Below are positions 7,038 to 38,880 of a stretch of DNA of 64,000 nt, in pieces. The DNA comes from an archaeon. GTDB taxonomy: Archaea; Iainarchaeota; Iainarchaeia; Iainarchaeales; 1-14-0-10-31-34. The position numbers were made by a program, and so were the translations under genes. The DNA lies in the NCBI GenBank assembly GCA_024277355.1, contig JAJRVL010000011.1, positions 34,155 to 98,154 on the forward strand, read 5' to 3'. Position 1 is the first letter of the stretch; every line of letters starts with the position of its first letter. The notes beneath the pieces were generated by a model. The model had not been told where the DNA came from. It was given only the letters and a program-made list of their open reading frames with translations, and did no database searches.

Positions 7038-7526
7038 ATGATTTGTTTTATTGCATTAATTGTTTTTGCGATTTTGGGAATTTTTTCTGCTAAATACAGA
7101 GAATATGCTAAAGAAGCATTTGACTGTGTTTTTAGAAGAGTTACCTTAAGAAAATGCAATACTGCTTTTGATAAAAAAATGAAAATGAAGTTAACAGGGA
7201 AACTAATGAAAATAAGTCCTAAAGCAGGAGGAACTGTATTTAAGCACTTTGAATTAATTTCATGGTTTTTTACTTTGCTTACAATAATAAGTTTTGTCTA
7301 TGCCGCAGCAGGAGTATATAACTTTGTAGTATATGATAACTGTGAAGGGCCAAATGCAACTGCCAGTTGTATTTACTCTGAATTAACCGGAAGTGCTGAA
7401 ACTGTTTCCTGCGGTTCACAGCATTGTGCTGATACAGGATGCAATTGCGATGCAGGATGCGATGAAAGCAATAATTTTGCTGAATGTGATGGGAACTGTG
7501 ATTGTGTTAAAGAGGTTTGCGGCTAA
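7038..7526 (+). CDS. membrane protein with Cys-rich C-terminal (putative metal-binding) tail
   Basis: 162 aa with two TM helices. C-terminus CGSQHCADTGCNCDAGCDESNNFAECDGNCDCVKEVCG. The stop is immediately followed by the ATG of the HypC-like ORF. Confidence 0.4.
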   Translation: MICFIALIVFAILGIFSAKYREYAKEAFDCVFRRVTLRKCNTAFDKKMKMKLTGKLMKISPKAGGTVFKHFELISWFFTLLTIISFVYAAAGVYNFVVYDNCEGPNATASCIYSELTGSAETVSCGSQHCADTGCNCDAGCDESNNFAECDGNCDCVKEVCG

Positions 7527-7751
7527 ATGTGTGTTAATATTCCTGCTTTAATTGAAAAAGACGGAAAAATCGCAGAAGTCAAAATAGGCAAAAAAACAAT
7601 TAAAGTATTTAATTTTATTAAAGCAAAAAAAGGCGATTATGTTTATCTAAACGGCAGCTCAATTGTTGAATTAATTGAAAAAGGAACAGAAAAAGAAATA
7701 ATTAAAGCTTATTCTTTGAAAAGAAAAAAAAAGAAAAAATTACTTAATTGA
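7527..7751 (+). CDS. hypC: HypC/HupF-family small protein
   Basis: 74 aa. N-terminal MCVNIP matches the MC(L/I)(A/G)(I/V)P signature. KKGDYVYLNGSSIVELIEK aligns with GDYVLVHVGFAIEKI of HypC/HybG. Confidence 0.5.
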   Translation: MCVNIPALIEKDGKIAEVKIGKKTIKVFNFIKAKKGDYVYLNGSSIVELIEKGTEKEIIKAYSLKRKKKKKLLN

Positions 7752-8465
7752 ATTTACAAAGTTAATTGAATTTTCAGTGAATTTTTTTAGAGAATTAAAC
7801 TGCTGAATGTTTATTGGCGTACAAAAAACATTCCAATGAAAAGCAATTAAACTTCCTTTAGTAATTTTTTGGTTCCATTCAGGAAAAAAAGAAATTTCCT
7901 TTACAATTTCTTCTCCTAAAAAAAGCTTGTTGTTAACTGAAACAACAGGATAATATTCAACCAGTAATTTTTTTGTTTCTTTGTTTTCCTGCAGAACTTT
8001 TCCAAAAGAAATTTTACAGGAATCCATAAAATCAATTGTTCCTTTAGTTTTATCAGTTAAAGAATGAAATAAAAAAACATGAAAAGAATGATGCAAATCA
8101 GTTTTTTCAGGAAGAACTGAAATTAATTCTTCTGCAGCTTCTTTATTTAAGTAATTTGAATTAACAAGAGAAAAATAAATTTCTTCTAATTCTTTTTTTT
8201 TAAGGTCTTTAATTAAGTTATTCCCTATCCAATAACCTTCAACTATTTTTTCATCTAAAAAATCACAAGAATTCTTTCTGGCTAAAAGAGAAAGATAAGG
8301 AAAAGCCATTTCAAAAGAAGGAATTTTTTTTCTGATTGAATTTTCAAGAGAATTATTGCCGGATAAAAACGCATTAATTAAAGAAGGAAGTTCTTTGCTT
8401 CCGCAGTAATGCAGATTATTTGGAGGAAAAGCAAACTTACAGAAAAGCCTTAATCCATCAATCAT
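7740..8465 (-). CDS. hypothetical protein
   Basis: 241 aa with no recognisable motifs. Its start overlaps the stop of the upstream DMT transporter gene (ATGATTGA). Confidence 0.35.
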   Translation of the reverse strand: MIDGLRLFCKFAFPPNNLHYCGSKELPSLINAFLSGNNSLENSIRKKIPSFEMAFPYLSLLARKNSCDFLDEKIVEGYWIGNNLIKDLKKKELEEIYFSLVNSNYLNKEAAEELISVLPEKTDLHHSFHVFLFHSLTDKTKGTIDFMDSCKISFGKVLQENKETKKLLVEYYPVVSVNNKLFLGEEIVKEISFFPEWNQKITKGSLIAFHWNVFCTPINIQQFNSLKKFTENSINFVNSIK

Positions 8466-9363
8466 TTCTTACACTAAAAAACTTTTTCAAAAAGAAAAAA
8501 TGTTTTTCCTTAGAAATTATCAGCAAAAGTCCTGCAAACATAAAAAAATAACCAAGCAACTGCATTGGAACTAAAGGACTTGATTTAAAAAAGAAATTAA
8601 GCAAAGCAGTTATTGGAAGGCCCAACAACAAAATGCTTACTGCAGTTGAAGCAGGAATTTTTGATAAACCATTATACCAGGTTAAAACATAACCTAAAAG
8701 AAATAAAGAAGTTATTCCAATCCAAAAAAAGTTTTCTAAAGTAAGGGAAAACAAAAAAGAAGTTTTTCCGCTGAATAAAATATAAATTAAAATAAATAAA
8801 GAACCAAAAAACATTCTTCCAAAAGCAACTGCATTAGGTTTAATTGAATTCATTAAATGCTTTGAATAAGTGTTTTCAATACTCCAGAATAAAACTGCAA
8901 TTAAAATCATTAAGTCAGCTGAAGCAAAAGAAGTTATTTTTAATCCAAAAAGCAGGAAAACTGAAGCAAAAAGCAATAACGCACCAACAATAAACTTGGC
9001 ATTTATTTTTTCTTTTAAGAAAATTACTGCTAAAACAGTTACAAACAAAAACATGCTTTTATGAATAAACGCAGAATTAATGGAAGTAGTTGATTTTAAT
9101 GCATTAAAAAACAAAACAAAAGGAATACTCCCTCCAACAAAACCAACTGCAATTAACTGCAAAAAATTCTTTTTTGTTAACTGCTTTAAATAATTAAATT
9201 CTTTAAATAAGACAATTAATGAAAACAAAAAAAGTCCCACAACTAAGTTTTTTAAAAAAGTAAAAACAGTTGCATCAAGCGGTTTAACTGCAAAAGAATT
9301 AACAAAAATTGAAATGCCTGAAATTAAAGCAGTTAATAATACAAGCTGAATTCCTTTATTCAT
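8458..9363 (-). CDS. EamA/DMT-superfamily transporter
   Basis: 301 aa with ~10 predicted TM helices in two repeated halves. ATGA overlap with pgk upstream. Confidence 0.55.
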   Translation of the reverse strand: MNKGIQLVLLTALISGISIFVNSFAVKPLDATVFTFLKNLVVGLFLFSLIVLFKEFNYLKQLTKKNFLQLIAVGFVGGSIPFVLFFNALKSTTSINSAFIHKSMFLFVTVLAVIFLKEKINAKFIVGALLLFASVFLLFGLKITSFASADLMILIAVLFWSIENTYSKHLMNSIKPNAVAFGRMFFGSLFILIYILFSGKTSFLFSLTLENFFWIGITSLFLLGYVLTWYNGLSKIPASTAVSILLLGLPITALLNFFFKSSPLVPMQLLGYFFMFAGLLLIISKEKHFFFLKKFFSVRND

Positions 9364-10592
9364 GAAAAGAAAAAAAGAACAAAATTTATGTAAAGAGTCA
9401 GCTTTGATTGTTTTAATGCTTCAATAGCAATTAATTTTTTTCCTGAAAGGAATTTTAATGACGCTTTTCCGCTTAAAGAAACAAAAGAAAAATCTTCTTT
9501 AGAAAAACCAAGAGAAGATAAAGCAGTTTCAGTATCTCCTCCTCCTAAAAAAGTAAAACCTGAATTTTCTTTCATTGCCTGTAAAATTTCTTTTGTGCCT
9601 TTAGAAAATTCTTTTTCTTCAAAGACTCCTAAAGGACCATTAAATACAATTAATTTTGCTTTGGAAATTTCTTCAGAGAAATCCTTTATTGCATTTTCAC
9701 CTAAATCTTTTGAAATAAAGTCCGCAGGCAAATCAAAAACATTAATATTAGTTCTTTTTCCATTTTCATCTAAAGCAAAATCTTTTGGAAAAAATATTTT
9801 TTCAGAAAACGGTTCATAAATTTCTTTTATTTCCGGAATCAAAGAAAGAAAACCTTTTTCTTCAAAAAACTTTTGTTTTTTGCCAAAATCATAACCTAAA
9901 GAAACAATAATTAATTCTCCTAATAATCCTCCGGCTAAAACTTTGTCTGTTTTGTTTTCTTTTAAGAAAAAAGCCATAGTTTTAAGTGAATCTTCAGGTT
10001 TAGCTCCTCCAAGAATTAATAATTTTGGTTTTTCTTTTGAGTTTAACACTTTTTCAATATTAATTATTTCTGACTCTAATACTTTTCCCATAAAAGAAGG
10101 CATTAAAGGAATAAAACCTACAACTGTCGCATGGCTTCTATGGCTTACACTAAATGCATCTAAAACAAATAAATCAGCTGAATCAGCTAAATTTTTTATT
10201 ATTTCATTTTCAGAATGTTCTTTAGGAGTTTTTTCTTCTGATTCAAAATCAAGAAACCTTGTATTTTCCATTAAAAGAATTTCTTCTTCTTTTAAAGAAA
10301 AAATTTTTTCTTTAAAGTTTTCTTTCCATAAAGAAAACTGAATTTTTTTTCCAGTTAATTTTTCCAGTTCAGGCAAATGATTTTTTAATGAAACAAAATC
10401 TGGTTTCCCTTTTCTTCCTTGGTGAGATAAAACAACAATTTTTGCTTTTTTAGAAGAAAAAAAAGAAATTGTTTTTGCATGCTCTTTTAACCTTGCAGAA
10501 ACAACCGGTTTTCCTTCCTGAATATTTGAATTTAAATCTACTCTTAACAAAATGGTTTTGCCTGAAATGTTTTCGGGAACTGGTTTAAGCAA
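9360..10592 (-). CDS. pgk: phosphoglycerate kinase
   Basis: 410 aa. LLRVDLNS and VLSHQGRKGKP motifs. The HQGR motif is typical of archaeal PGK. Confidence 0.85.
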   Translation of the reverse strand: MLKPVPENISGKTILLRVDLNSNIQEGKPVVSARLKEHAKTISFFSSKKAKIVVLSHQGRKGKPDFVSLKNHLPELEKLTGKKIQFSLWKENFKEKIFSLKEEEILLMENTRFLDFESEEKTPKEHSENEIIKNLADSADLFVLDAFSVSHRSHATVVGFIPLMPSFMGKVLESEIINIEKVLNSKEKPKLLILGGAKPEDSLKTMAFFLKENKTDKVLAGGLLGELIIVSLGYDFGKKQKFFEEKGFLSLIPEIKEIYEPFSEKIFFPKDFALDENGKRTNINVFDLPADFISKDLGENAIKDFSEEISKAKLIVFNGPLGVFEEKEFSKGTKEILQAMKENSGFTFLGGGDTETALSSLGFSKEDFSFVSLSGKASLKFLSGKKLIAIEALKQSKLTLYINFVLFFFS

Positions 10593-10594
10593 TA

Positions 10595-11581
10595 TTACAC
10601 CTTTTTAATTAAATCAAGCAATCTTGCAGAATAACCCCATTCATTGTCATACCAGGACATAACTCTAACCATATTTTTGTTTACTACCTGAGTTAAATCT
10701 GAATCAACAATACTTGAATGAGAATTTCCTAAAATATCATGAGAAACAATTGGAGCAGTAGAATATTCCAGAATTCCTTTCAGATAAGTTTCAGATGCTT
10801 TTTTAAATGCAGCATTAACTTCTTCTTTTGTTGTTTCTTTTTTAACTAAACAAACAAAATCAGTCATTGAACCATTTGGAACAGGAACTCTTAATGAAAC
10901 TCCGTCCATTTTTCCTGCTAATATAGGCAAAACTTTTCCTGCTGCTTTAGTTGCTCCAGTGGTAGTTGGAATAATCGATAAAGAAGCAGCTCTTGCTCTT
11001 CTTAAATCTTTATGGGCAAAATCTAATAATCTTTGGTCATTAGTATAAGCATGAATTGTATTCATCATTCCTGAAACAATGCCAAATTCTTTTTCTAATA
11101 CTGCAGCTACAGGAGCTAAACAATTTGTTGTACAAGAAGCATTAGAATAAGTGTTTTTGTCTTTGGCAATTTTTTCGTCATTTACTCCAAAAACAACTGT
11201 TGCATCAACATCATCTGATGGAGCTGAAACAATTACTTTTTTTGCGCCTGCGTTTAAATGCTGATTAAAGTCTTCTTTTTTCCTGAATCTTCCGGTGCAT
11301 TCTAATACTACATCAATATTTAATTCTTTCCAGGGAAGTTTTTCAGGATCTGCTATTGCAAAAGATTTAATGTTTCTTTTTCCAATTACAATACTTTCAT
11401 CAGTAAAAGAAACTTCTTCTGGATAAACACCATAAACTGAATCATATTTGAATAAATGAGCTAAAGTTTTATTATCAGTTAAGTCATTTATTGCAACCCA
11501 TTCAATATCATTTCTTTTTAGTCCTTCTCTTAAGACAACTCTTCCAATTCTTCCAAAACCATTTATTGCAACTCTAATCAT
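10595..11581 (-). CDS. gap: glyceraldehyde-3-phosphate dehydrogenase, type I (bacterial/eukaryotic type)
   Basis: 328 aa. NGFGRIGR Rossmann motif and ASCTTNCLAP active-site motif. Confidence 0.9.
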   Translation of the reverse strand: MIRVAINGFGRIGRVVLREGLKRNDIEWVAINDLTDNKTLAHLFKYDSVYGVYPEEVSFTDESIVIGKRNIKSFAIADPEKLPWKELNIDVVLECTGRFRKKEDFNQHLNAGAKKVIVSAPSDDVDATVVFGVNDEKIAKDKNTYSNASCTTNCLAPVAAVLEKEFGIVSGMMNTIHAYTNDQRLLDFAHKDLRRARAASLSIIPTTTGATKAAGKVLPILAGKMDGVSLRVPVPNGSMTDFVCLVKKETTKEEVNAAFKKASETYLKGILEYSTAPIVSHDILGNSHSSIVDSDLTQVVNKNMVRVMSWYDNEWGYSARLLDLIKKV

Positions 11582-12793: not shown

Positions 12794-13192
12794 TTGAAGG
12801 GACAAATTTCAATTGAATATCTTACTTTAACTGCAATTGTTCTCCTTATTGTAGGAGTAATGTTTGTTTTTGCAATAACAACTGTAAATGAAAACGCAAG
12901 ACTTAATTCAGCTTATTATGCTACAAGAGAATTAGCTAATGCAGCAGATGAAGTAAGTACTAGAAATGGAAGCACTATTGTGGTTGAAATTGAACTGCCT
13001 TCAGATGTAACTTCTTTTTCAACTTTTGGGACAGACATTACAATTGAAATGACGTCTCTTTTAAATTCATTTCAGGTTTTTGATTCAAGCAAGGCATCAT
13101 TACAGCCGACAAATTTTTCCACTTCAGAAGGAACTCATTTTATTGCAGTGAATTCAACTGATTCAAATATCACTTTTACTGAACTTAATTAA
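12794..13192 (+). CDS. archaeal type IV pilin-like protein (class III signal peptide)
   Basis: TTG start. MKGQISIEYLTLTAIVLLIVGVMFV has a KG/Q cleavage motif with E at +5, followed by a hydrophobic helix. Confidence 0.6.
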   Translation: MKGQISIEYLTLTAIVLLIVGVMFVFAITTVNENARLNSAYYATRELANAADEVSTRNGSTIVVEIELPSDVTSFSTFGTDITIEMTSLLNSFQVFDSSKASLQPTNFSTSEGTHFIAVNSTDSNITFTELN

Positions 13193-13203
13193 AGGGATTA
13201 TAA

Positions 13204-13560
13204 ATGAAAGGGCAGGTTTCAATGGAAGTAATTATTGGAGCAATAATTTTATTGCTTGTATTGGTTTTTATCTGGATTTACAGTATTCAAACAAATGAAG
13301 GAATTGATGCATTAAAAAATTCAGTTGAATCAAAATCTTACTGCAGAGAAATTGCAGATACAATTAGTTCAGTTTATGCTTCAGGAACAAAAACTACAAT
13401 AGAATTTTATTCAGAAAAAGACTTTAATTTAAGCAATGGAATGGTTGATGTTAATGGTTTTCTCTGCAGTTATTATGCTGAAGCAGAAGAAAAATTTATA
13501 GCAAAAGGAAACATAAGAATAAAAGATTTGAACGGGGTTGTCGTGATTGAAAATATTTAA
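13204..13560 (+). CDS. archaeal type IV pilin-like protein (class III signal peptide)
   Basis: MKGQVSMEVIIGAIILLLVLVFIWI has the same class III signal architecture. Confidence 0.6.
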   Translation: MKGQVSMEVIIGAIILLLVLVFIWIYSIQTNEGIDALKNSVESKSYCREIADTISSVYASGTKTTIEFYSEKDFNLSNGMVDVNGFLCSYYAEAEEKFIAKGNIRIKDLNGVVVIENI

Positions 13561-14116
13561 GAGAAAATGCTCGGCTGAGCAAAGCGAATGCCGTGCACCG
13601 TCACACCCGAGCGGAATCGGGTCGCGAGCGAAATCGCGAGGGCAGTCAAGTTTAATTGATTTAGTTATTGGGTTTTTTATTTTTGCTTTGATTCTTGCTT
13701 CAATTATGGGAACTATAAATAAAAATACAAAAGATTTCACTAGAAATTCAGAAATAGATGAAATAAATCATGATTCTTTTTTTTCAGTAAAAGAATTAAC
13801 TGAAACAAAAGGTTTTCCTGAAAACTGGGAAATATTAGATGAAAATTCAGTTGAAAAAATAGGTTTAATTGAAAGGAGAAATACAATAAGTGAAGACAAA
13901 GTTGTTGCTTTTTCTAATATGACTTACAGCAAAACAAAAGAACTACTTAAAATAGAAGGATATGATTATTATTTTGTATTAAACGGAGTAGATAATATTA
14001 CTGCAGGAATAAATCCTGTTGGGCAAACAAAATATTCAATTATTACTAAAAGAATTGTAAATTATAAAGGAAGTGAAGCTGAAATTGAATTCAGATTATA
14101 TGAACTCTGGGAATAA
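13547..14116 (+). CDS. pilin-like protein with unusual GC-rich 5' segment
   Basis: The ORF reads through a ~80-nt 66%-GC island, then RGQSSLIDLVIGFFIFALILASIMG, a class III signal-like motif. The true start is uncertain (TTG in the track). Confidence 0.4.
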   Translation: MKIFKRKCSAEQSECRAPSHPSGIGSRAKSRGQSSLIDLVIGFFIFALILASIMGTINKNTKDFTRNSEIDEINHDSFFSVKELTETKGFPENWEILDENSVEKIGLIERRNTISEDKVVAFSNMTYSKTKELLKIEGYDYYFVLNGVDNITAGINPVGQTKYSIITKRIVNYKGSEAEIEFRLYELWE

Positions 14117-16820
14117 AGGATTTACTTTTACTTTAGATTCAATTCTTGCCTTGCTTATAGTTTCAGGAATAGTTATTTCTTCAGGATTATTTTTTACTGA
14201 AGAAAAAACTGAAATTAATTTAAGCCAGGAATTAAATGATTCATTTAATGCAATGGAAGAAACAGGTTATTTGATTAGTCAAGTGGATACAAATGTTTCT
14301 GGTTCAGCACAAAATATTTACAATAAATTAATTGGTTTTTTTCCTGACAGAATTGACTTTAATGTAACTGTAAAAGAATTAGACTTAAATAATACAAACT
14401 GCAGAGCAACACCAACTTTTAACGGCTGTTTTACTGATTCAAATGAATTTACTTTTGGTTCAAGTGTTCCAACAGACAAAACAATTTTTTATGGAAAAAA
14501 ATTAATAATAAAAAAACAACCTCCAGGAGAATGCGATACAAATATGCTTGGATTAGCAGAATATCCTTTTACATTTTATGAAAAAAACGATATCTTGTTT
14601 TTTGCGGGATCTGGAGATTTAAATTTTGTTTTTGATGTAAATGTAACTCCTTCAACTGAAATTGAATGCGACCAGAACATTACAATAGATTTAAGTGCAG
14701 CATTTCCTCCGGGTTATAGAAGACCTGTGGACATAATGCTTGTAATAGACAAAAGCGGTTCAATGAGCTGGGGGGGAAGATATGATACAAGCAGTGCAAG
14801 AGGAATAGATTTAGATGGAAATTATGCATATATTGCAGATTATAGCAATGGAATAAGAAGTTTTGATATTAGTGTTCCTTTAGTTCCTCAGTATTTGGAT
14901 AGATATGATACTTACAGAGCATATGATGTTTTTGTTGATGGAAGTGAAGCTTATTTGGCAGATTATTCATCTGGAATACGGTCAATTGATGTAAGCGATC
15001 CAAATAATATGAGTCAGGATGACAGAGTTGATTTATCTGTAAATTATTCTTTTGGAATAACAGTTAATGGAAATTATGCTTTTGCAGGCAATGGTTCAAG
15101 AGGAGTTGATTCCTATGACATAAGCAACCCAAACAACATGAATCAATTAGACAGATATAATACGCCTGGAACTGCAAGAGGAATTGATGCAAACGGAGAC
15201 TATGTTTATGTTGCAGATGGAGGAAGAGGATTAAGAGTATTAAATGCCTCAGATCCAAATGATTTATCTAATGAAGATTCTTTGGATTTAGGAGGATATG
15301 CTTATGATGTAAGAAATGTTGGAGATTATGCTTTTGTTGCAAATGGTTCAAGAGGATTAGATATTTTTGATGTAAGTGATCCTTCAGACATCAGTTCAAG
15401 AGGGCGGTATAATACTGCTGGAACTTCTTATGGAATTGATGTTGTTGGAAATACAGCTTATATTGCTGACGGAGGAGGAGGATTATATTCAATTGATATT
15501 AGTGATGTTGACAATCCTTCTTTAATTAAGAGATATGATACTCCTTATACTTATTATGATGTAAGAGTGAAAAATGGTTATGCTTTTATTGCAGCAGGAA
15601 ACATGGGGTTAATTACTTTGGATTTAACTTCAGGAACAAAAATGGATGCAGTTCATGCTTCAGCTAATGCTTTTGTTGACTTTAATGAATGGACTGATAA
15701 TGATCAAATGGGAATTGCAAGTTTTAATACAAGTTCAACTTTGGATTCACAATTACTAAAATTAGATGACACAAACAAAACACAATTGAAAAATGATATT
15801 AATGCAATAACTCCTGGCGGAGGAACAAACATTGAAGAAGGAATAAGAGAAGCAACAGATGAATTAATTTCAAGCAGAGCAGATCCTTATGCAATAAAAT
15901 TTATGGTGTTGCTTTCAGACGGAGTATCAACTTCAGGAGATTCACTTGATGCAGCACAAGATGCAAATGCAGAAGGAATAACAATTTATACAATTGGATT
16001 TGGCGGAGATGTAAGTGAATCAGAACTGCAGAATATTGCTAATGCAACTGATGGAAATTATTATTTTGCTTCAGATGCAAATACATTAATAGACATCTAT
16101 AATATTATTGCAGATAAAATTCAGGCTCAAGCAACTGATTCAAATGTAACAATTGTTGTTCCAAGTAATGTAACAATAATTAATGACGGAAACGCATCAA
16201 TAATTGACGGCAATTTAGTTTTTGATTCAGGAAATATTACTCCTGATACTCCCTGGCAGGGAAGTTATATCATTAATATTCCTTGTGATTCAAATTTAAG
16301 CTGCGACACTGCTTCAATTACTTTTCCCGGCCAAGGAAGCTTTTTGTCTTATGTTGATGTAAACGGAGTAACACAAACAGTTGACTGGAATAGTTTTACT
16401 GTTCCAATTCCATTTAAGAAAAGAGACATTACAGTTGAAATTACTAGTGGAGAATTGTTATCTGAAACAGATATTTTTATTGATGTAAATGTATCAAATA
16501 TTGGGGATTTAAATACCGGAACAACAGACTTAAATTTTTATTTAGGAAATGATTCAATCTGCAGTATTGGAGCAGGAAGAACTCTTTTGTCAAATCATTA
16601 TTTAGTTCCGGAATTATGCGGAAGCAATGATGAAAACTGTTCTTTTTCTACAACGCTTTATTTGGATGAATATATGTTAAGTCAGGGAATAATTTGTGCT
16701 GAAGTTAATCCTGACAGAAATTTAAAAGAATGTCCAAATAATAATCTTGATTCAATTCACTGTTATTTAGCTCCAAAAACACAGTTTTATGTAATTGAAT
16801 ACAGAGGATGGATTAAATGA
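14100..16820 (+). CDS. large pilin-led cell-surface adhesin: vWA domain interrupted by a 7-blade LVIVD beta-propeller, plus C-terminal CARDB-like beta-sandwich domains
   Basis: Likely start MNSGNKGFTFTLDSILALLIVSG (pilin-like N-terminus; track start is 14073). MIDAS DIMLVIDKSGSMS at ~14730, then 7 LVIVD-type repeats (GIDxxGNYAYIADxxxGIRSFDISDPNN), then the rest of a vWA fold (FMVLLSDG, ITIYTIGFGG). Many N-x-S/T sequons. Confidence 0.7.
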   Translation: MNSGNKGFTFTLDSILALLIVSGIVISSGLFFTEEKTEINLSQELNDSFNAMEETGYLISQVDTNVSGSAQNIYNKLIGFFPDRIDFNVTVKELDLNNTNCRATPTFNGCFTDSNEFTFGSSVPTDKTIFYGKKLIIKKQPPGECDTNMLGLAEYPFTFYEKNDILFFAGSGDLNFVFDVNVTPSTEIECDQNITIDLSAAFPPGYRRPVDIMLVIDKSGSMSWGGRYDTSSARGIDLDGNYAYIADYSNGIRSFDISVPLVPQYLDRYDTYRAYDVFVDGSEAYLADYSSGIRSIDVSDPNNMSQDDRVDLSVNYSFGITVNGNYAFAGNGSRGVDSYDISNPNNMNQLDRYNTPGTARGIDANGDYVYVADGGRGLRVLNASDPNDLSNEDSLDLGGYAYDVRNVGDYAFVANGSRGLDIFDVSDPSDISSRGRYNTAGTSYGIDVVGNTAYIADGGGGLYSIDISDVDNPSLIKRYDTPYTYYDVRVKNGYAFIAAGNMGLITLDLTSGTKMDAVHASANAFVDFNEWTDNDQMGIASFNTSSTLDSQLLKLDDTNKTQLKNDINAITPGGGTNIEEGIREATDELISSRADPYAIKFMVLLSDGVSTSGDSLDAAQDANAEGITIYTIGFGGDVSESELQNIANATDGNYYFASDANTLIDIYNIIADKIQAQATDSNVTIVVPSNVTIINDGNASIIDGNLVFDSGNITPDTPWQGSYIINIPCDSNLSCDTASITFPGQGSFLSYVDVNGVTQTVDWNSFTVPIPFKKRDITVEITSGELLSETDIFIDVNVSNIGDLNTGTTDLNFYLGNDSICSIGAGRTLLSNHYLVPELCGSNDENCSFSTTLYLDEYMLSQGIICAEVNPDRNLKECPNNNLDSIHCYLAPKTQFYVIEYRGWIK
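14794..15640 (+). repeat. seven tandem LVIVD-type repeats (~126 nt each) inside the adhesin gene
   Basis: Repeated peptide pattern Y(A/D)V...G(N/D)YA(Y/F)(I/V)A(D/N)G..G(I/L)...D(I/V)SDP. Confidence 0.6.
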
Positions 16821-17776
16821 AAAATAAAGGAATCTTTTTTCTTTTAATGGGATTAATTCTTTCTCTTTTAGTTTTGGGTTTTGGATTTAAAATAAACCAG
16901 CAGTATCTTGAAGCAGAAAAAAAATCATTTAATTCAAATGCATTACAACAAGTTAAAAACAAATACTCAAATATTAATTCAGTTAAAGACTTTTACAGAG
17001 AAGGAACAATAAAAACTTATTTTGAAAGAATTGTTCCGATTACTTATTCGGTTGATGAAAATACAATAAGCATTACTCAACAGCTTCCGATAAAAAAAGC
17101 TTTAGTGCGAAATTTTTTTGATTTTGTTAATGCATTTGAAATTTTCACTGAAACAACTGATTCATTAGTTTATGACGGAATAGATGTTGAAATTGAAACT
17201 GTTCAAAACAGTTTATGGGGAGGAACAGATGAAAACATTGTTTTAATGATTAAACCTCAATGCAAAAAATATTCAATTACAGATTATAATTCAATGCATT
17301 TTTATGGTTCAAATGAATGCGACAATGCTTTTGATATCAGTTTAATTGAAAGAATTGACATAAATATTACTGTAAGTTCAGATGATGATTTTAACAGATT
17401 ATCCTGTAATTTCGGAGGCGATTTAGTCTGTTATCAGGAAACTTATGTGCCTGCAAACCCAAATCCATTTATTGAAATAAACTTGATTGATTCAGCCTGC
17501 CCTAATTGCGATTTAAATTCAGATACAAGAACAATAAAAAAACATTTTACTCCTACTTCTGCAAACACAGTAATTTTTTCATGTTCAGGAACATGCACTT
17601 CTCTTCCAATAGAAATATTATTTAATGAAAATAATACTGAAATAAGGCATTCAGGAACAACAATAAGTGTTAAAACTGAATTTTTGTTTACAGACAAAAT
17701 AACTGAATTTGAATTAAATGATTTAAACATAAGTTTAACTGACTCAAAATTTAGTATAACAAAAACAAATAAGTGA
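16817..17776 (+). CDS. hypothetical pilus-associated protein with N-terminal hydrophobic anchor (minor pilin-like)
   Basis: 319 aa. MKNKGIFFLLMGLILSLLVLGF N-terminus, Cys-containing body. ATGA overlap with the adhesin. Confidence 0.4.
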   Translation: MKNKGIFFLLMGLILSLLVLGFGFKINQQYLEAEKKSFNSNALQQVKNKYSNINSVKDFYREGTIKTYFERIVPITYSVDENTISITQQLPIKKALVRNFFDFVNAFEIFTETTDSLVYDGIDVEIETVQNSLWGGTDENIVLMIKPQCKKYSITDYNSMHFYGSNECDNAFDISLIERIDINITVSSDDDFNRLSCNFGGDLVCYQETYVPANPNPFIEINLIDSACPNCDLNSDTRTIKKHFTPTSANTVIFSCSGTCTSLPIEILFNENNTEIRHSGTTISVKTEFLFTDKITEFELNDLNISLTDSKFSITKTNK

Positions 17777-17780
17777 AAAA

Positions 17781-18842
17781 ATGAATGCCATGAATTTAAT
17801 TTCAATAATTGCTTCAATAGCAATAATAATTGCAGTGTTTTTTGTCGCTAATGAAAACATTGTTAATTTTGAAAACACAAAAACACAAATAGAAATTCAA
17901 TCAAAAGAAAACTTTGAACAAGGAGAAAATGCAGAATTTATAATAAACATAGAAAGCGGAAAAGAAATAACAAAAATAATTTATATTTCTCCCACAAAAA
18001 GAGAAGAAAAAAATTGCGGAAAAAAAACATGCGTTTTGACTTTTAAGGAAATATTTACAGAAAAAGGAGTTTTTTTTATTGAAATAAAAGTTGAAATAGG
18101 AAAAGAAACATTCAGTGAAAAAAAGAAAGTTTATGTAAATGCCGCAGGAAAAAAATGTTCTGATGGAACTGCTTTTGGGTTATGCTCTTTAAACAAACCA
18201 CAATACTGCAATAACGGCAAACTTGAATATAACTGTGAAAAATGCGGATGTGAACAAGGAGAATGCATTAATAATAAATGCAGTTATTCAGGAACAACTG
18301 AAATTACAGGAATTTCACTTGAAAGAACATTTTTTGAGCCAAATCAGGAAGTGAAAATTAATTTAAATTCAAAAGAAAATAGTTTAGTTAATGTTGTAAT
18401 TGAATGGAAAAAAGACAATAAAACAGAAAAAACAGAAACAAAAAATACTTCATTAAATTATGTTCTGTCAGTTTCTCCGCCAAAAGAAGGAGTATATGAA
18501 TTAAACTTAGTTTTTGAAGAAAAAGTTTTTTCAGTTGAAAACATAACAATAAGAAATGACTCAACACCCCCAAAAACACCTGAAGGAATTATTGCAAGCA
18601 AAAGAAACGGAAAAATACTTATTGCATGGAATCCAAATACTGAAGCTGATTTAATGGAATACAGAATTTACAGGAGTAAAGAAGATAATCAGGCGTTTAC
18701 AACTTATACTATGGCAGAAACTGCATCAAAAAATGAAACCGGGAAAGAACTTGAAATATGGTCAACAAATTATTTTTACATTACTTCAGTTGACTATTAC
18801 GGCAATACATCAAAGCCAAGTGCAATAATTGAAGCAACGTGA
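17781..18842 (+). CDS. hypothetical surface protein, N-terminal TM anchor, Cys-rich middle, FN3-like C-terminal domain
   Basis: 353 aa. C-terminus PPKTPEGIIASKRNGKILIAWNPN...YRIYRS...YFYITSVDYYGNTSKPS resembles a fibronectin type III domain. Confidence 0.4.
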   Translation: MNAMNLISIIASIAIIIAVFFVANENIVNFENTKTQIEIQSKENFEQGENAEFIINIESGKEITKIIYISPTKREEKNCGKKTCVLTFKEIFTEKGVFFIEIKVEIGKETFSEKKKVYVNAAGKKCSDGTAFGLCSLNKPQYCNNGKLEYNCEKCGCEQGECINNKCSYSGTTEITGISLERTFFEPNQEVKINLNSKENSLVNVVIEWKKDNKTEKTETKNTSLNYVLSVSPPKEGVYELNLVFEEKVFSVENITIRNDSTPPKTPEGIIASKRNGKILIAWNPNTEADLMEYRIYRSKEDNQAFTTYTMAETASKNETGKELEIWSTNYFYITSVDYYGNTSKPSAIIEAT

Positions 18843-18888
18843 AAATTAAAAAGAATAAATAACTAAATATAACAACAGGTAATTAAAA

Positions 18889-20655
18889 ATGGAAAAAGAA
18901 CAGCAGAAAAAAAATTTATTAATAAGCAAAATGCTTGAAGCAAAAAGAATAGAATTAGGAATCATAGAAAACCAGTTATTATACAAACTAAAAATTTTAT
19001 TTAAAAAACCTGAAAAAACTAAAAGCCAAAAAATAAATGAACTAAAAAAAAGTCTTGAAAAAAAAGAAACAGACGAACTTGAATTAATGCTTGTTGAAAA
19101 AGAACACGCATTAATAAAACTTGAAACAACAGTAAAAGAAAAAAAAGACAAAGAAAAATTAAAAGAAGTAATAAAACTAGTTGAAAAAATAAAAAACAGT
19201 GAAGGCGAAAGAGGCAAAATAGGAATGGAAATAGGCTTAAAAAGAAAAGAAATAAAAGAACTCAAAAAAGAAGTAGAACAGAAATTAAAAGATATAACCA
19301 GAGAAAAAACTATTCTGACTCCAAAAAAGAAAAAAATTAAGAAAACAGAAATAAAAAAAGGAAAAAAAACTAAAAAGAAAAAAGAAAAGAATTCTTCAAC
19401 TCTTCTAAAAAAAAGAAAAAAAGAAAAAGTTTCAGGTTCATCCAGAAAATTAAAGAAAAAAACTAAAATAGAAATGAAAAAACCAAAAATTTCTTTTTCT
19501 TCACCTGAAGAAGAATTAAAAGCAAAAAGAGAACAAGAAGTAAAAGAAAAAAGGAAAAAAGCCATGGCTGCATTTCATCAGAATTTTACTTCAGGAAACG
19601 AAACTTTAATTAACATTAAAGGAAACGCTCAAATAGTTTCAGGAACAAGAGGCACAGGAACAACAGGAATAAACAATAAAGAAACAGCAAAACAAACTGA
19701 ATATGCTGAAAGCAGAAAAAATGAAGAACTTGAATTTGACATACAGAAAACAAAAGAAAAAATAAAGAACTTAAAATCCGCTTTTTTCCACAGACAAATA
19801 AATGAAGAAACATACAAGAAAAAACAGTTTGAATACCAAGAAGAATTAAGCTCACTTGAAATGGAAAAAAAAAGGCCAAAAAAAAGAAGTTTTGCTCCTG
19901 TTCAAAAAACAGAATCTGTTTCAGCTTATGCAGGATTAAAAACAGTTCAGGATGAAAGCGTTCAGTTTGCAACAAAACACACTCAAAAAAGCAGAGCAAA
20001 AGTAAAAAATGCATTAAAGAGATTTAAAAAAGAATTTAATGCAGGTTCAAAAACAAAAGCCAATTTAGATTCCGAAGAAAAAACACGTGTTAAAACTGAA
20101 CCAGAAGAAATAAAACCAACCGGAATAATAAAAAGACTTGCTCCTGGAACAAGCCAGGAAAAAGAAATGGAAATGGAAAAAAAGCTTTATAGGGTAATGC
20201 AAAAAAATCAGATTGACCAAAGCAGGATTAGAAGAGAATTTGAATTTGTTTCAGCTAAAGATTTAATGAAAAGGTTTGACAAAATACTTGATGTAATTGA
20301 CAACAAGTATTCTCAAACAGAAAAACCTGCAGAAAAAGAAGAAAAGCCATTTGAAGAAGGATTGTATGTAACAAACAAACAAACTTCCCAAAAAACAGGA
20401 GAAATAAGAGACATAAAAGAAAAAATAATAGTAACTGATTTTGACAGATTACTTGAATTAGTAAATAAAAAAGGAAAAGTAAACGAAAAAGAAGCAGAAA
20501 AAACACTTAAATTAAGTCCAGAAAGAATAAAAGAATGTTATACTGTATTAGAAAAGAATGACTTAATTAGAATAGAATACCCTATGTTTGGAGGAACACA
20601 AATTTTTTCAAAAAATTTTGTTGAACCAAAAAAAATTAAAAAGAAAAAAAAGTGA
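18889..20655 (+). CDS. Lys/Glu-rich coiled-coil protein with low-complexity poly-K linker and C-terminal winged-helix-like domain
   Basis: 588 aa. Long KKKK-rich tract. C-terminus IIVTDFDRLLELVNKKGKVNEKEAEKTLKLSPERIKECYTVLEKNDLIRIEY. It lies between pilin genes and the pilus ATPase. Confidence 0.4.
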   Translation: MEKEQQKKNLLISKMLEAKRIELGIIENQLLYKLKILFKKPEKTKSQKINELKKSLEKKETDELELMLVEKEHALIKLETTVKEKKDKEKLKEVIKLVEKIKNSEGERGKIGMEIGLKRKEIKELKKEVEQKLKDITREKTILTPKKKKIKKTEIKKGKKTKKKKEKNSSTLLKKRKKEKVSGSSRKLKKKTKIEMKKPKISFSSPEEELKAKREQEVKEKRKKAMAAFHQNFTSGNETLINIKGNAQIVSGTRGTGTTGINNKETAKQTEYAESRKNEELEFDIQKTKEKIKNLKSAFFHRQINEETYKKKQFEYQEELSSLEMEKKRPKKRSFAPVQKTESVSAYAGLKTVQDESVQFATKHTQKSRAKVKNALKRFKKEFNAGSKTKANLDSEEKTRVKTEPEEIKPTGIIKRLAPGTSQEKEMEMEKKLYRVMQKNQIDQSRIRREFEFVSAKDLMKRFDKILDVIDNKYSQTEKPAEKEEKPFEEGLYVTNKQTSQKTGEIRDIKEKIIVTDFDRLLELVNKKGKVNEKEAEKTLKLSPERIKECYTVLEKNDLIRIEYPMFGGTQIFSKNFVEPKKIKKKKK

Positions 20656-20659
20656 TTAA

Positions 20660-22180
20660 ATGAAAGAAAAAGTTTTAGAAACATATAAAGTAAAATCAAT
20701 TGAAACAGAAATAGAAGTAAATATTATTGAAAGAGAAAAAGAAGTAGTAAGAATTTATTTTTTAAATTTTCCTGAATTTGGAGCAGGAACAAAAGCCGTA
20801 TTAAAAAATTTAAAAAGAAGCATTATAACTGATTCAACAATTCAGGCAGAAAAAATGATGGATCCTAATTTTGTTGATTCACTTAAAAGAAAATTTCAGG
20901 GAAGAGCAGAAAAAATACTTGAAAAAGAACTTCCAAATATAGCTGAAGGCTCAAAAAGTTTGTTAATAGGATTATTATTAGAAGAAATGCTTGGATTAGG
21001 CAAATTAGAGTTTTTATTAAATGACGGAAACATTGAAGAAATAGTTGTAAATACTGCAACTGAACCAGTATGGATTTATCATAAAGGATATGGCTGGCTG
21101 AAAACAAATGTTTTTATTACTCCTGAAAAAGAAATACAAAATTATGCAAGTATTATTGCAAGAAGAATTGGAAAACAAATTACAATATTAAATCCTTTGC
21201 TTGATGCACATTTAATTACAGGAGACAGAGCTAATGCAACTTTATTTCCTATTTCAAGCAAAGGAAACACTATTACAATAAGGCGTTTTAGAAGAGAACC
21301 ATACACTATAACTGATTTTGTTGAAAACCGAACACTTAACACCGATATAATGGCTTTAGTATGGCTTGCAATGGAATATGAATTAAACATTATTTTTTCA
21401 GGAGGAACAGGTTCAGGAAAAACCACTTCATTAAATGTTTGTCTGCCTTTTATTCAGCCAAACCAAAGAATTTTAAGTATAGAGGACACAAGAGAACTTT
21501 CACTTCCAGAATATCTCCACTGGGTTCCATTAACTACAAGAGAACCAAACACTGAAGGAAAAGGCGAAGTAACAATGCTTAATTTATTAGTTAACTCTTT
21601 AAGAATGCGTCCAGACAGGCTGATTGTAGGAGAAATCAGAAGGCAAAGAGAAGCAGAAGTATTATTTGAAGCAATGCATACAGGACATTCAGCTTACACT
21701 ACTTTTCACGCTAACACAGCAGAAGAAACAATCAGAAGATTAGTTAATCCTCCAATTGAAATTCCAAAAACAATGCTTGATTCAGTTCACTTAAATATAG
21801 TAATGTTTAGAAACAGAAGATTAAATGTAAGAAGAGTGCTTCAGGTAGCTGAATATGTAACTGAAAGAAGAGGAGACACAGAAGAAGTAAAAGCAAATAT
21901 TTTATATCGATGGAAAGGAGCAACAGATACAATAGAAAAACATTCTGAAAGCATTAGATTATTTGATGAATTAGGATTACATACAGGTTTAAGCAAACAG
22001 GAAATGAACAATGAATTAAAAACAAAAAAGAAAATTCTTGACTGGATTACATCAAACAAAATTCGTTCAATACAGCATGTTGGAAGGATAATGGCAGATT
22101 ATTATATGAATAAAGACAACATAATTGAATTAGCAGAAAAAAACAAAAAACCAGATTATATTTTTGAGGAGAAAAAATGA
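20660..22180 (+). CDS. type IV pilus/archaellum-type assembly ATPase (FlaI/PilB/TadA family)
   Basis: 506 aa. Walker A FSGGTGSGKTTSLN, Asp box and Walker B region, His box (EAMHTGHSAYTTFHAN), typical of secretion NTPases. Confidence 0.85.
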   Translation: MKEKVLETYKVKSIETEIEVNIIEREKEVVRIYFLNFPEFGAGTKAVLKNLKRSIITDSTIQAEKMMDPNFVDSLKRKFQGRAEKILEKELPNIAEGSKSLLIGLLLEEMLGLGKLEFLLNDGNIEEIVVNTATEPVWIYHKGYGWLKTNVFITPEKEIQNYASIIARRIGKQITILNPLLDAHLITGDRANATLFPISSKGNTITIRRFRREPYTITDFVENRTLNTDIMALVWLAMEYELNIIFSGGTGSGKTTSLNVCLPFIQPNQRILSIEDTRELSLPEYLHWVPLTTREPNTEGKGEVTMLNLLVNSLRMRPDRLIVGEIRRQREAEVLFEAMHTGHSAYTTFHANTAEETIRRLVNPPIEIPKTMLDSVHLNIVMFRNRRLNVRRVLQVAEYVTERRGDTEEVKANILYRWKGATDTIEKHSESIRLFDELGLHTGLSKQEMNNELKTKKKILDWITSNKIRSIQHVGRIMADYYMNKDNIIELAEKNKKPDYIFEEKK

Positions 22181-23070
22181 TTGATAAAAGTGAAATAATT
22201 CCTTTCAATATTCTTCCAGTTCCATTAATAAAAAAACTTTCAATGAAATTTTATGGTACAGGAACAAAATTATCAAAATTTTTTCCTGATTTAAAATTAG
22301 AGTTAGCTCAGGCAGAATTAGCTTACAGCGAAAAAGAATACAGTGCAATAATCATTACAATGGCAGTAATTTACGGTGTTATTGGATTAATAATTGGATT
22401 ATTGTTTGGTTTCAGGCTTTTTCCTGATGGATTTATTTTAGTTGGGTTAGGCGGAGGAGCATTAGTTGGTTTTTTTGTAATGTTTCAGGTTGCTTTTTAT
22501 CCAAAAATAAAAGGAAAAAAGAAAATAAGAGAAATTGAAAGAAATTTAATTTTTGCTTTAAGGACAATGAGTGTAGAAATAAAATCAGGAGTTTCATTAT
22601 TTGATTCACTTAATATTATAGCACAAGGAGATTATGGTGCTTTATCAATTGAATTTGGCAAAGCAGTAAAAGAAATTGAAACAGGAACAATGGAAGAAAA
22701 TGCATTAGAAAAAATTGCAAGATATAATCCTTCATTGTTTTTCAGAAGAAGTATATGGCAGATAATTAATGGAATGAAAGCAGGAGCAGATGTAAGTTCA
22801 GTAATGGAAGAATTAGTTGCAACAATGATAAGAGAAGAAAAATTACAGATAACAAGATACGGTAATTCAATGAAATTACTTTCATTAATGTACATGATGT
22901 TAGGTGTAATAATTCCTTCTTTAGGAATAACTTTTTTGATTATATTATCTTCTTTTCCTCAAATGCAGTTAGGAGAATTATTATTCTGGATGTTATTAGG
23001 AGTTATTATTGTAGGTGAATTTATGTATTTAGGAATATTAAAATCAAAAACACCAAATTTAATGGGATAA
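22177..23070 (+). CDS. TadB/FlaJ-like platform membrane protein (one T2SSF domain)
   Basis: 297 aa. T2SSF-like block LIFALRTMSVEIKSGVSLFDSLNIIAQGDYGALSIEFGKAVKEIETGTMEENALEKIA plus TM helices. Confidence 0.7.
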   Translation: MIDKSEIIPFNILPVPLIKKLSMKFYGTGTKLSKFFPDLKLELAQAELAYSEKEYSAIIITMAVIYGVIGLIIGLLFGFRLFPDGFILVGLGGGALVGFFVMFQVAFYPKIKGKKKIREIERNLIFALRTMSVEIKSGVSLFDSLNIIAQGDYGALSIEFGKAVKEIETGTMEENALEKIARYNPSLFFRRSIWQIINGMKAGADVSSVMEELVATMIREEKLQITRYGNSMKLLSLMYMMLGVIIPSLGITFLIILSSFPQMQLGELLFWMLLGVIIVGEFMYLGILKSKTPNLMG

Positions 23071-23071
23071 A

Positions 23072-23467
23072 ATGTATGAAAAAATTAGTTCAATGATTCC
23101 AAGAAATGTCTTAAAGGCATTTAAAAACGAATTAACATATGCAGGAATAGACTTAGATGAAAAAAACTTTGTTGGTTTTGTGTTTGTTTTTGGTTTTGCA
23201 ACAGCAATTGCAGCAGGATTTGCTTTAAATTTCTTTTTTTCACTTCATTTTTTTATTGGATTTATTACAGGATTTATTTTAACTGTAGGGGGAATTTATT
23301 ACCTGCTTAATCAGGCAGGAGACAGCAAAGCAAGATTTGTAGAAAAAATTCTGCCTGACGCACTTCAATTAATTGCTTCAAACATGAAGTCAGGATTAAC
23401 AACAGAAAAAGCATTATTGGTTTCATCAAGACCTGAATTTGGTGCATTAGCAATAGAATTAAAATAA
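23072..23467 (+). CDS. TadC/FlaJ-like platform protein, N-terminal fragment (ends at an in-frame TAA)
   Basis: 131 aa. Ends ...ILPDALQLIASNMKSGLTTEKALLVSSRPEFGALAIELK* in the middle of a T2SSF domain. It is in the same frame as the next ORF. Confidence 0.5.
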   Translation: MYEKISSMIPRNVLKAFKNELTYAGIDLDEKNFVGFVFVFGFATAIAAGFALNFFFSLHFFIGFITGFILTVGGIYYLLNQAGDSKARFVEKILPDALQLIASNMKSGLTTEKALLVSSRPEFGALAIELK

Positions 23468-23479
23468 GCAAGCAAAAAA

Positions 23480-24055
23480 ATGATGACTGGAGAAAGAACT
23501 GAAACAGCCTTAAAAGAAATGACTTTAAAAATAAGATCAAAAATTTTCAGTAAAACAGTCTGGCTTATAACAGAAGGAATTAATTCAGGCGGAGAAATGG
23601 CTAACTTGCTTTTACAGTTGTCTAATGATTTAAGAGAGCAGAATGCATTACAGGAAGAAGTAAAAGGAAATGTTTCAATGTATGTAATTTTGATTTTTTT
23701 TGCTTCAGTTATTGGCGCACCATTAATGTTTGGAATAAGTTCTTTTATTGTACAGATAATGGCAAAACAAGCAGGTGGTTTATCAGGATTATCAGAAGAA
23801 AGTTTAGCTTTAGCTTCATCTCAAGGAGCATTTTCATCTGGAACAGGAATAAGTATTACAGCTGACTTTATTGTAATGTTTTCAATGATAACTTTGTTTG
23901 TTATTTCAGTTTTTGGTTCACTTACAATAGGAATAATAAGTACTAGAAGTGAAAAAGGCGTAATAAAGAATATTCCTTTAATGTTAATTTCATCTTATGT
24001 GATTTACTTTATTGTTTTAACTGTATTACAATCAACTTTTAGTTCATTGGTTTAA
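23480..24055 (+). CDS. TadC/FlaJ-like platform protein, C-terminal fragment
   Basis: 191 aa. Continues the same T2SSF domain (MMTGERTETALKEMTLK...GINSGGEMANLLLQLSNDLREQ), paralogous to the 22177 ORF, then 3 TM helices. Confidence 0.5.
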   Translation: MMTGERTETALKEMTLKIRSKIFSKTVWLITEGINSGGEMANLLLQLSNDLREQNALQEEVKGNVSMYVILIFFASVIGAPLMFGISSFIVQIMAKQAGGLSGLSEESLALASSQGAFSSGTGISITADFIVMFSMITLFVISVFGSLTIGIISTRSEKGVIKNIPLMLISSYVIYFIVLTVLQSTFSSLV

Positions 24056-24927: not shown

Positions 24928-25626
24928 ATGCCAAGATTAACTGACAGAACAAAAACAGGAGTTCCAGGATTAGATGAATTACTGGACGGCGGGATTCCAA
25001 GAGGAAATTTAGTTGTATTAGCAGGAGACCCTGGTTCAGGAAAAACCTGTTTTTGCCTTGAATATCTATACAAAGGAGCATTGGATTACAACGAACCAGG
25101 AATATATATTTCATTAGAAGAAAGCTATGCTGAAATAATACGAAACGGAAGAGAATTTGGATATGAATTAGAAGAATTAATAAAGAAAAAAATGCTGATA
25201 ATTGAAACAGTAGAATTATATGATTTTGAAAAACTGAAAAATTTAATTGAAGATTCAATTCAGATAATTAATGCAAAACGATTAGTAATTGATCCTGGAG
25301 TAATTTTCAGATTATATTTTGATAGAGAATTAGATGCAAGAAAAAGAATAATGAGTTTAGGAAAAATGCTTAAATTAATTGACTGCACTACTATAATAAC
25401 AAATGAAATTAATTTAGACAAAACAAGAAGTTTATTTGGATTAGAAGAATATGTGGCTGACGGAGTGTTGTTGCTGTATCATACAAAAATAGAAAACAGG
25501 TTTGTAAGAAGTTTAGGTGTATTAAAAATGAGAGGAACAAAAATATCAGAAAAACTTCATCCAGTTACAATCGGCCCAACAGGAATAAAAGTTTTATCAA
25601 AACAAGAATTATTTGAGGATATATAA
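24928..25626 (+). CDS. KaiC/RadA-family (RecA-superfamily) ATPase, single domain
   Basis: 232 aa. GLDELLDGGIPRGNLVVLAGDPGSGKTCFCLEYL (Walker A) and Walker B LVIDPG. Confidence 0.75.
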   Translation: MPRLTDRTKTGVPGLDELLDGGIPRGNLVVLAGDPGSGKTCFCLEYLYKGALDYNEPGIYISLEESYAEIIRNGREFGYELEELIKKKMLIIETVELYDFEKLKNLIEDSIQIINAKRLVIDPGVIFRLYFDRELDARKRIMSLGKMLKLIDCTTIITNEINLDKTRSLFGLEEYVADGVLLLYHTKIENRFVRSLGVLKMRGTKISEKLHPVTIGPTGIKVLSKQELFEDI

Positions 25627-34535: not shown

Positions 34536-34620
34536 AAAAAAATAATAGAAATAAAATTGCATTAATCAAAAAAAAGTTAATTAAAATAAAGTGAAATAAA
34601 AAAAAGTTAAAGTAATTTTT

Positions 34621-38869: not shown

Positions 38870-38880
38870 TAATTTTTAAT

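Follow-up and report, generated by a model that had tools for sequence, protein, structure and literature searches.

A HypC-like protein, a DUF6390 protein and an EamA-family permease: a gene module linked to [NiFe] hydrogenases in other genomes and found apart from hydrogenase genes in a 64-kb stretch of a DPANN archaeon

A stretch of 64,000 nt (positions 34,155 to 98,154 of contig JAJRVL010000011.1, from an archaeon of the order Iainarchaeales), referred to throughout as the window and covering some 60% of its 111-kb contig in a metagenome-assembled genome (MAG), was analysed with respect to a short gene resembling hypC, a [NiFe]-hydrogenase maturation gene, and the genes surrounding it. The locus comprises a gene for a Cys-rich membrane protein with two predicted transmembrane helices, the HypC-like gene, and two genes on the opposite strand encoding a DUF6390 protein and an EamA/DMT-family permease (table 1); the last three genes are referred to as the trio or the module. 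An earlier note made from the sequence alone (the original prediction) had described the two forward-strand open reading frames (ORFs) and a stop-to-start contact between them, and both ORFs were recovered with the sequences that it quoted. The TAA of the membrane-protein gene abuts the ATG of the HypC-like gene, with GAGGT located 10 nt upstream, and the two genes are probably co-transcribed; at the same junction in a related genome (locus L007) a 4-nt spacer is present. The DUF6390 gene runs towards the HypC-like gene, the two sharing 12 nt at their ends, and the EamA gene lies directly upstream of the DUF6390 gene on the same strand, overlapping it by 8 nt and the stop of the phosphoglycerate kinase gene (pgk) by 4 nt. 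The complete order is leucyl-tRNA synthetase, membrane protein and HypC-like protein, followed on the reverse strand by DUF6390, EamA, pgk and the glyceraldehyde-3-phosphate dehydrogenase gene (gap). On the minus strand (7740-11581), gap, pgk, EamA and DUF6390 are closely packed, with overlaps of 4-8 nt or a 2-nt gap, and the DUF6390 and EamA genes appear to be co-transcribed with the glycolytic pair.

Table 1. Genes and junction of the HypC-like locus, in window coordinates.
Feature	Position	Strand	Size and remarks
Cys-rich two-helix membrane protein gene	7038..7526	+	162 aa
TAAATG stop-start junction, membrane-protein gene/HypC-like gene	7524..7529	+	read directly in the sequence
Divergent HypC-family gene	7527..7751	+	74 aa
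DUF6390 gene	7740..8465	-	241 aa; PF19927
EamA/DMT-family permease gene	8458..9363	-	301 aa; PF00892

The G+C content of the trio was 24-27%, compared with 28% for the window, and gave no indication of recent horizontal acquisition. Ratios of non-synonymous to synonymous substitution (dN/dS) between the window and L007, which are rough values as dS was saturated, were 0.12 for the HypC-like gene, 0.18 for DUF6390, 0.11 for EamA, 0.14 for pgk and 0.09 for the membrane-protein gene; by this measure the trio is maintained under purifying selection and is not decaying. Rfam and tRNA scans of the window returned no matches.

The 74-aa protein has the N-terminus MCVNIP (Met-Cys), a GDYV motif and a Lys-rich C-terminal tail. 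A HypC signature had been proposed for it, and this stood as far as the Met-Cys start and the GDYV motif are concerned but not as a full signature: PF01455 scored 20.7 bits (E 4.6e-4) and did not reach its gathering cut-off of 28.5 bits, TIGR00074 scored 13.4 bits against a cut-off of 48, and the V-H-V-G of HypC is replaced by Y-L-N-G (GDYVYLN), so that the position of His51 (E. coli numbering) is occupied by Asn. Relationship to HypC was upheld at the level of profiles. A profile of 29 HypC-like proteins linked to DUF6390, with the window protein included (profile A4), matched the HypC entries 2z1c (E 2.5e-26), 3vyr (E 9e-25), 3d3r (E 1.4e-15) and 2ot2 (E 1.7e-14) in the PDB, whereas the best PDB match of the 74-aa protein alone was 2z1c at E 0.055, with residues 1-65 aligned; the protein was therefore taken to be a divergent relative of the HypC family. 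From the gap-poor alignment to 2z1c over these residues, we infer an OB-fold beta-barrel followed by a C-terminal helix. A hidden Markov model (HMM) of 58 HypC-like ORFs from DUF6390 loci scored the window protein at 59 bits. Some positional orthologues exceed the PF01455 cut-off (L086, for example, at 52 bits), and the one at L009 matches PF01455 at E <= 1e-5.

Cys2, which in HypC is the essential iron ligand and becomes the N-terminal residue (PMC12134894), was invariant in 29/29 aligned DUF6390-linked HypC-like proteins. His51 of E. coli HypC sits at the interface with HypD, and its loss weakens HypD binding (PMC9002611); at this position His was found in only 9 of 62 DUF6390-linked HypC-like proteins, the remainder having Q, Y, D, N, S, A or K. 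A word-indexed homologue search with the 74-aa protein returned the protein itself and one relative only, and HMMER, run exhaustively over 1.8 billion representatives, gave 10 matches at E <= 1e-3. The family was collected by way of DUF6390 loci because the protein alone was too short and too divergent. A spurious ORF was considered for the 74-aa frame and was ruled out by the conserved reading frame, the Cys2 start, the motif and the dN/dS of 0.12. The HypC-like proteins of DPANN modules (DPANN stands for Diapherotrites, Parvarchaeota, Aenigmarchaeota, Nanoarchaeota, Nanohaloarchaeota) end in a Lys-rich tail such as KRKKKKKLLN (window 7700-7751, L009, L013, L014), which is absent from those of the candidate phyla radiation (CPR) and Chloroflexota and from canonical HypC.

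The convergent gene encodes a DUF6390 protein: PF19927 scored 135.9 bits, the cut-off being 25, and the match extends over residues 3-239 of 241. Its AlphaFold2 model was confident (predicted local distance difference test score (pLDDT) 88, predicted template modelling score (pTM) 0.86) and shows residues 1-150 as a helical domain and residues 153-218 as a beta-barrel, with a helix at the end. Nine residues were invariant across 83 DUF6390 sequences (C21, G22, W79, G81, H126, V130, C150, H210 and W211), and all of them are kept in the window protein. Profile-profile comparison of the HypC-like proteins with DUF6390 gave E 2.7e-5 at 74% probability, with Cys2 aligned onto C150 and the His51 position onto H210. 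Foldseek comparison of the model with the PDB gave no significant match, the N-terminal domain matching nothing. On the basis of the profiles and the model, DUF6390 appears to be a protein of the HypC fold extended by a further domain; it would have kept the Cys/His pair, of which its small partner has usually lost the His. The fourth gene encodes a permease with two EamA repeats (PF00892, E 1e-36, 126.6 bits). In a Kerfeldbacteria genome (L078, 9044-10735) a single 563-aa ORF carries EamA (residues 9-294) fused to DUF6390 (residues 321-562), and by this Rosetta-stone evidence the two proteins probably act together at the membrane.

DUF6390 was then scanned for in one genome per species, which gave at least 591 matches; 80 loci drawn from these were used for counting, with gene labels checked by Pfam. 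The matches came from Chloroflexota, Patescibacteria/CPR, DPANN, Thermoplasmata, Methanosarcinales, Actinomycetota and others. A HypC-like ORF starting with Met-Cys was found within 2 kb of DUF6390 at 58/80 loci, and an adjacent EamA gene at 42/80, in almost all cases immediately upstream in the same orientation and often overlapping, in addition to the one fusion (1/80). The large subunit of a [NiFe] hydrogenase was present in the examined DNA at 55 of the 80 loci and a maturation protease at 54; where at least 8 kb was available on both sides (35 loci), only five were without the large subunit. The trio is thus overwhelmingly hydrogenase-linked in other genomes.

In CPR the typical order was beta-beta-HypC-EamA-DUF6390-small-large-HypA, in DPANN (L013, L014, L065, L079) it was beta-small-large-protease-EamA-DUF6390 followed by HypC on the opposite strand, and in Chloroflexota, Nitrolancea hollandica included, it was HypA-HypB-HypC-DUF6390 followed by an ATP-binding cassette (ABC) transporter with SBP_bac_5. 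At L009 (DUF6390 39% identical) EamA and DUF6390 converge on HypC, with a HycI-like protease gene nearby, and at L010/L011 (30% identical) HypC, EamA and DUF6390 lie in one direction, with genes for a large subunit (NiFeSe_Hases) and a small subunit (Oxidored_q6) at a distance of 1.4 kb. The window shows the DPANN arrangement of the module, with pgk and gap in place of the hydrogenase genes of its relatives. In Chloroflexota the SBP_bac_5 (Nik/Opp-type) ABC transporter follows DUF6390 (L041, 10774-12402, and 10 other loci), and in CPR and DPANN EamA precedes it, so that DUF6390 adjoins a transporter in both settings. A conserved protein of 358-437 aa with no Pfam match was also seen in DUF6390-containing Chloroflexota hydrogenase clusters (L052, 6268-7344; L086, 750-2063; and others), upstream of the protease and hypA/hypB and often duplicated.

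The original prediction had taken another partner for the HypC-like protein, namely the membrane protein encoded upstream of it, and had suggested that this translationally coupled pairing may point to a different metal-cluster role; on such a reading the two would form a functional pair that handles a metal cluster at the membrane. The two-helix topology given for the membrane protein held, hydrophobic helices being present at about residues 3-16 and 71-99 of the AlphaFold2 model, which as a whole was weak (pLDDT 68, pTM 0.46). The protein contains 14 Cys, nine of them within the last 38 residues, so that the Cys-dense tail noted earlier does exist here, but in an alignment of homologues (alignment A1) this tail was variable or absent. 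The loop between the helices is basic (15 K/R and 4 D/E) and the tail is acidic (1 K/R and 12 D/E), from which the positive-inside rule would place the tail outside the cytoplasm, whereas HypC is cytoplasmic. The pair reading draws on the TAAATG junction, on the conserved Cys of both proteins and on the adjacency of the two genes, which is kept at L007, with the same synteny as the window, and apparently also on a contig of 4,925 bp that is the source of homologues P0002 and P0012. Elsewhere the adjacency was not found: L007 was the only one of 78 membrane-family loci with a HypC-like or DUF6390 neighbour, at least 353 relatives of the membrane protein exist, and outside this lineage the HypC-like genes at DUF6390 loci never adjoin the membrane family, so a single shallow lineage accounts for the pairing. 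Moreover, three loci whose membrane proteins are approximately 70-76% identical (L006, L092 and L094) have the order leucyl-tRNA synthetase-membrane protein followed by pgk and gap on the reverse strand, and are missing the HypC-like, DUF6390 and EamA genes together; the three genes therefore come and go as a block, independently of the membrane-protein gene. It is with DUF6390 and EamA, encoded on the other strand, that the HypC-like gene has a conserved partnership. By these comparative data the pair reading is largely refuted and its remaining probability is very small, and a new metal-cluster role is not supported by the pairing. Tight spacing in a compact genome of 28% G+C does not imply a functional pair, and it was presence or absence in other genomes that re-assigned the partner.

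Hydrogenase genes were looked for in the window in two ways. HMMs built from related loci for the large, small and beta-like subunits, both protease types, HypA and HypB matched none of the window ORFs, and Pfam scans of approximately 55 ORFs revealed no hydrogenase or hyp family within the 64 kb, the genes recognized being those of glycolysis, glycogen metabolism, the 2-C-methyl-D-erythritol 4-phosphate (MEP) pathway, a pilus-like locus and housekeeping functions. The earlier statement that no hydrogenase genes lie nearby was thereby borne out. What the original prediction had named as evidence against itself, a hydrogenase operon elsewhere and HypC paralogues common among relatives, was found in part: the same module lies inside [NiFe]-hydrogenase operons of the related DPANN loci named above.

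The module is best explained as an accessory unit of [NiFe]-hydrogenase maturation that is widespread in CPR, DPANN and Chloroflexota and that here serves a hydrogenase encoded outside the window, a reading which we consider probable, though by no means assured. In such a unit, the iron moiety of the cofactor would be held or passed on by Cys2 of the HypC-like protein, and the protein, mostly without the HypD-interface His, would dock on DUF6390 instead. The HypC-like barrel of DUF6390 (C150, H210) and its helical domain (C21, H126) may form a shared Cys/His metal site, and the two proteins could make a complex around this site that assembles or delivers the cofactor. The permease, which is translationally coupled to DUF6390 and in one case fused with it, might bring in or take away a small solute or a metal complex at the membrane. 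In this genome the module would have moved away from the hydrogenase structural genes, having been appended to the gap-pgk operon and, on the other strand, placed behind the membrane-protein gene.

Several points weigh against this explanation. No hydrogenase, protease or hypA/B/D/E/F gene occurs within 7.7 kb on one side and 55 kb on the other side of the module, and the locus is atypical because about 30 of the 35 well-flanked DUF6390 loci have a hydrogenase within 10 kb. The 74-aa protein falls below both curated HypC cut-offs and is without His51. The TAAATG junction suggests co-expression of the HypC-like protein with the membrane protein. In the searched literature nothing relevant was found on DUF6390 or PF19927, on EamA together with HypC, or on how hydrogenases mature in CPR/DPANN, and the role given to the permease is a guess.

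The absence of hydrogenase genes is also the starting point for regarding the trio as a true orphan, in a lineage that has no [NiFe] hydrogenase and in which the module would serve some other client, for example by handling iron, nickel or a further cofactor. The purifying selection on the module, the intact invariant residues and the attachment of DUF6390 and EamA to the gap-pgk transcription unit by overlapping stops and starts would all fit this, as would the few other well-flanked loci without a large subunit within 10 kb (e.g. L029, L043), though L029 still has hypA close by. The strong association of DUF6390 with hydrogenases elsewhere (30/35 well-flanked loci), which extends to the related DPANN archaea L013, L014 and L065, speaks against it, as do the coverage of only part of a MAG contig by the window and the frequency of group 3b [NiFe] hydrogenases in DPANN (PMC8421398). 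The trio as an orphan is accordingly kept as a tentative second explanation, on the unlikely side, and service to a hydrogenase outside the window is preferred.

The relation of the module to HypD was considered separately. By motif and phmmer searches, HypD and HypE were found at only one of about 83 DUF6390 loci, so that DUF6390 often stands directly after hypC, in the place expected for hypD. At the one exception (L046, 78-4594, Chloroflexia) the order is hypD-hypE-(439 aa)-glutaredoxin-like 80-aa ORF-DUF6390, with HypD and HypE upstream of DUF6390 and the glutaredoxin-like gene in the usual place of the HypC-like gene. A general role for DUF6390 as a straight replacement of HypD was ruled out by this locus, where hypD-hypE and DUF6390 occur together. 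A narrower proposal is that in the reduced genomes of CPR and DPANN the DUF6390 protein, the His-less HypC-like protein and EamA replace the HypD scaffold, building or importing the Fe(CN)2CO moiety independently of HypD/E/F. Its attractions are the near absence of HypD and HypE where HypA, HypB, HypC and protease genes do cluster with DUF6390, the occupation of the slot after hypC (as in L086, hypA-hypB-hypC-DUF6390), the loss of the HypD-contacting His from most of the HypC-like partners (PMC9002611) and the coupling or fusion of a permease to DUF6390. It is opposed by the coexistence of hypD-hypE and DUF6390 in at least one Chloroflexia genome (L046), by the fact that DUF6390 carries no HypD-like [4Fe-4S] motif and by the lack of any evident source of the CN or CO ligands, and the counts span 10 kb and say nothing of the rest of each genome; we consider it quite improbable. 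Slightly less improbable, but still distinctly unlikely, is the broader possibility that the trio is an unrecognized, widespread route to the iron part of the [NiFe] cofactor, perhaps free of HypD/E/F in reduced genomes, or that it was recruited to a non-hydrogenase client in this DPANN lineage. The accessory unit of hydrogenase maturation remains the preferred explanation.

The closest known counterpart of the 74-aa protein is HypC/HybG, the chaperone of the Fe(CN)2CO unit of [NiFe] hydrogenases (PF01455, TIGR00074; PDB 2z1c, 2ot2). Shared features are the length of about 75 aa, the Met-Cys N-terminus, the hydrophobic beta-strand pattern, the G-D-[YW]-V motif, a predicted C-terminal helix with E-A, an end-to-end alignment with T. 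kodakarensis HypC and the presence of orthologues within hydrogenase operons of related genomes. The window protein differs in its scores below the curated cut-offs, in the Asn replacing the HypD-contacting His51 (PMC9002611), in its Lys-rich tail, and in having DUF6390 rather than hypD as a neighbour and no hydrogenase gene in the window. With HypD, the [4Fe-4S] scaffold partner of HypC, DUF6390 shares the usual gene position, and its invariant Cys/His residues could ligate iron together with HypC Cys2, as Cys41 of HypD does. There is no similarity of sequence or fold between the two, however, the GPGCPVC and GFETT motifs of HypD are missing, DUF6390 has 241 aa compared with about 370 aa for HypD, and both coexist in L046.

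The maturation of [NiFe] hydrogenases is held to need six universal Hyp proteins and a few extras that are known only from aerobic Proteobacteria; among these extras, HupF/HoxL and HupK/HoxV, an additional HypC paralogue and a larger Cys-bearing scaffold, supplement HypA-F in maturing O2-tolerant hydrogenases (PMC12134894). DUF6390 and its HypC-like partner resemble them in being two putative HypC-fold proteins whose genes adjoin within hydrogenase clusters. It is the hydrogenase large subunit that HupK/HoxV resemble, however, whereas DUF6390 combines a novel helical domain with a HypC-like barrel; the trio also differs in occurring with group 3b-like cytosolic enzymes of anaerobic CPR/DPANN and with Chloroflexota enzymes, and in including an EamA permease. 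The novelty lies in the module, the HypC-like protein itself being a divergent new member of a known family. The conserved trio, with EamA at about half of the loci, lies within hydrogenase operons both of Chloroflexota and of the lineages with reduced genomes that have been studied least. If the proposed role is correct, DUF6390 gains a function and the maturation toolkit gains a member, and the question is raised of how the cofactor is assembled in CPR and DPANN organisms.

The membrane protein matched neither a Pfam nor an NCBIfam family, and profile A1 gave no sequence match in the PDB. Homologues numbered 183 in the protein collection, the core having no Pfam family in any of these, and at least 353 on metagenome contigs, and were labelled Diapherotrites, Woesearchaeota or simply 'archaeon'. 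In alignment A1 the conserved core comprised the first 110 or so residues, in which C3, C30, C40 and C102 did not vary and C111 hardly did; a thioredoxin domain forms the end of one homologue (P0059). At the 78 membrane-family loci, the immediate neighbours included a GILT-like protein of approximately 320-360 aa (31/78; the representative L004 passes Pfam GILT with 27.1 bits against 22.4), a multi-thioredoxin protein (3/78), a class-V aminotransferase (12/78), a copper P-type ATPase (5/78) and a cupredoxin-like protein (4/78). GILT-like or thioredoxin-fold neighbours were present at 34/78 loci, in addition to DsbA-like genes, and glutaredoxin and DsbA/Thioredoxin_4 proteins (CPFC or CPAC) were found one or more genes away at several loci; the window gene is without an adjacent thioredoxin-fold gene. 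On this sequence evidence, the membrane protein represents a separate DPANN-wide family, set among thiol-disulfide and copper genes, and is a candidate for a component in the membrane that handles copper or thiols and disulfides outside the cytoplasm. It may be compared with DsbB/VKOR and DsbD/CcdA/ScsB as a membrane protein with conserved Cys pairs, C30/C40 in the basic loop and C102/C111 probably outside, whose homologues at other loci are encoded near DsbA-like, GILT-like, thioredoxin, glutaredoxin and copper genes, and the single thioredoxin fusion in the family parallels the VKOR-Trx fusions. It is unlike the four-helix DsbB/VKOR and the six-helix CcdA in having two transmembrane helices, and shows neither sequence or profile similarity to DsbB/VKOR and DsbD/CcdA nor evident quinone-binding features.

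Several other gene groups were observed in the window. A type IV pilus-like locus (12794-24055) encodes a class III signal-peptide protein, a 915-aa protein with LVIVD repeats and a VWA domain, a T2SSE ATPase, two T2SSF-like membrane proteins and several neighbouring ORFs of 300-590 aa without a Pfam match. At 24928-26455 a DUF7504/DUF7090 protein comes directly after a KaiC-like ATPase, and another paralogue of the former lies 28 kb away (54615-55223). A glycogen metabolism cluster (32682-41654), in what is a small-genome archaeon, contains a GDE_C debranching enzyme, phosphoglucomutase, a GalT-like protein, a eukaryote-type glycogen synthase (PF05693), a GH57 enzyme and a GT4/GT5 starch-synthase-like enzyme. 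The mevalonate route is the usual one in archaea; at 46744-52038 the window, otherwise DPANN-like, carries bacterial-type genes of the MEP/1-deoxy-D-xylulose 5-phosphate (DOXP) pathway in a row, in the order dxr, ispD, a 283-aa ORF with no Pfam match, ispF and dxs.

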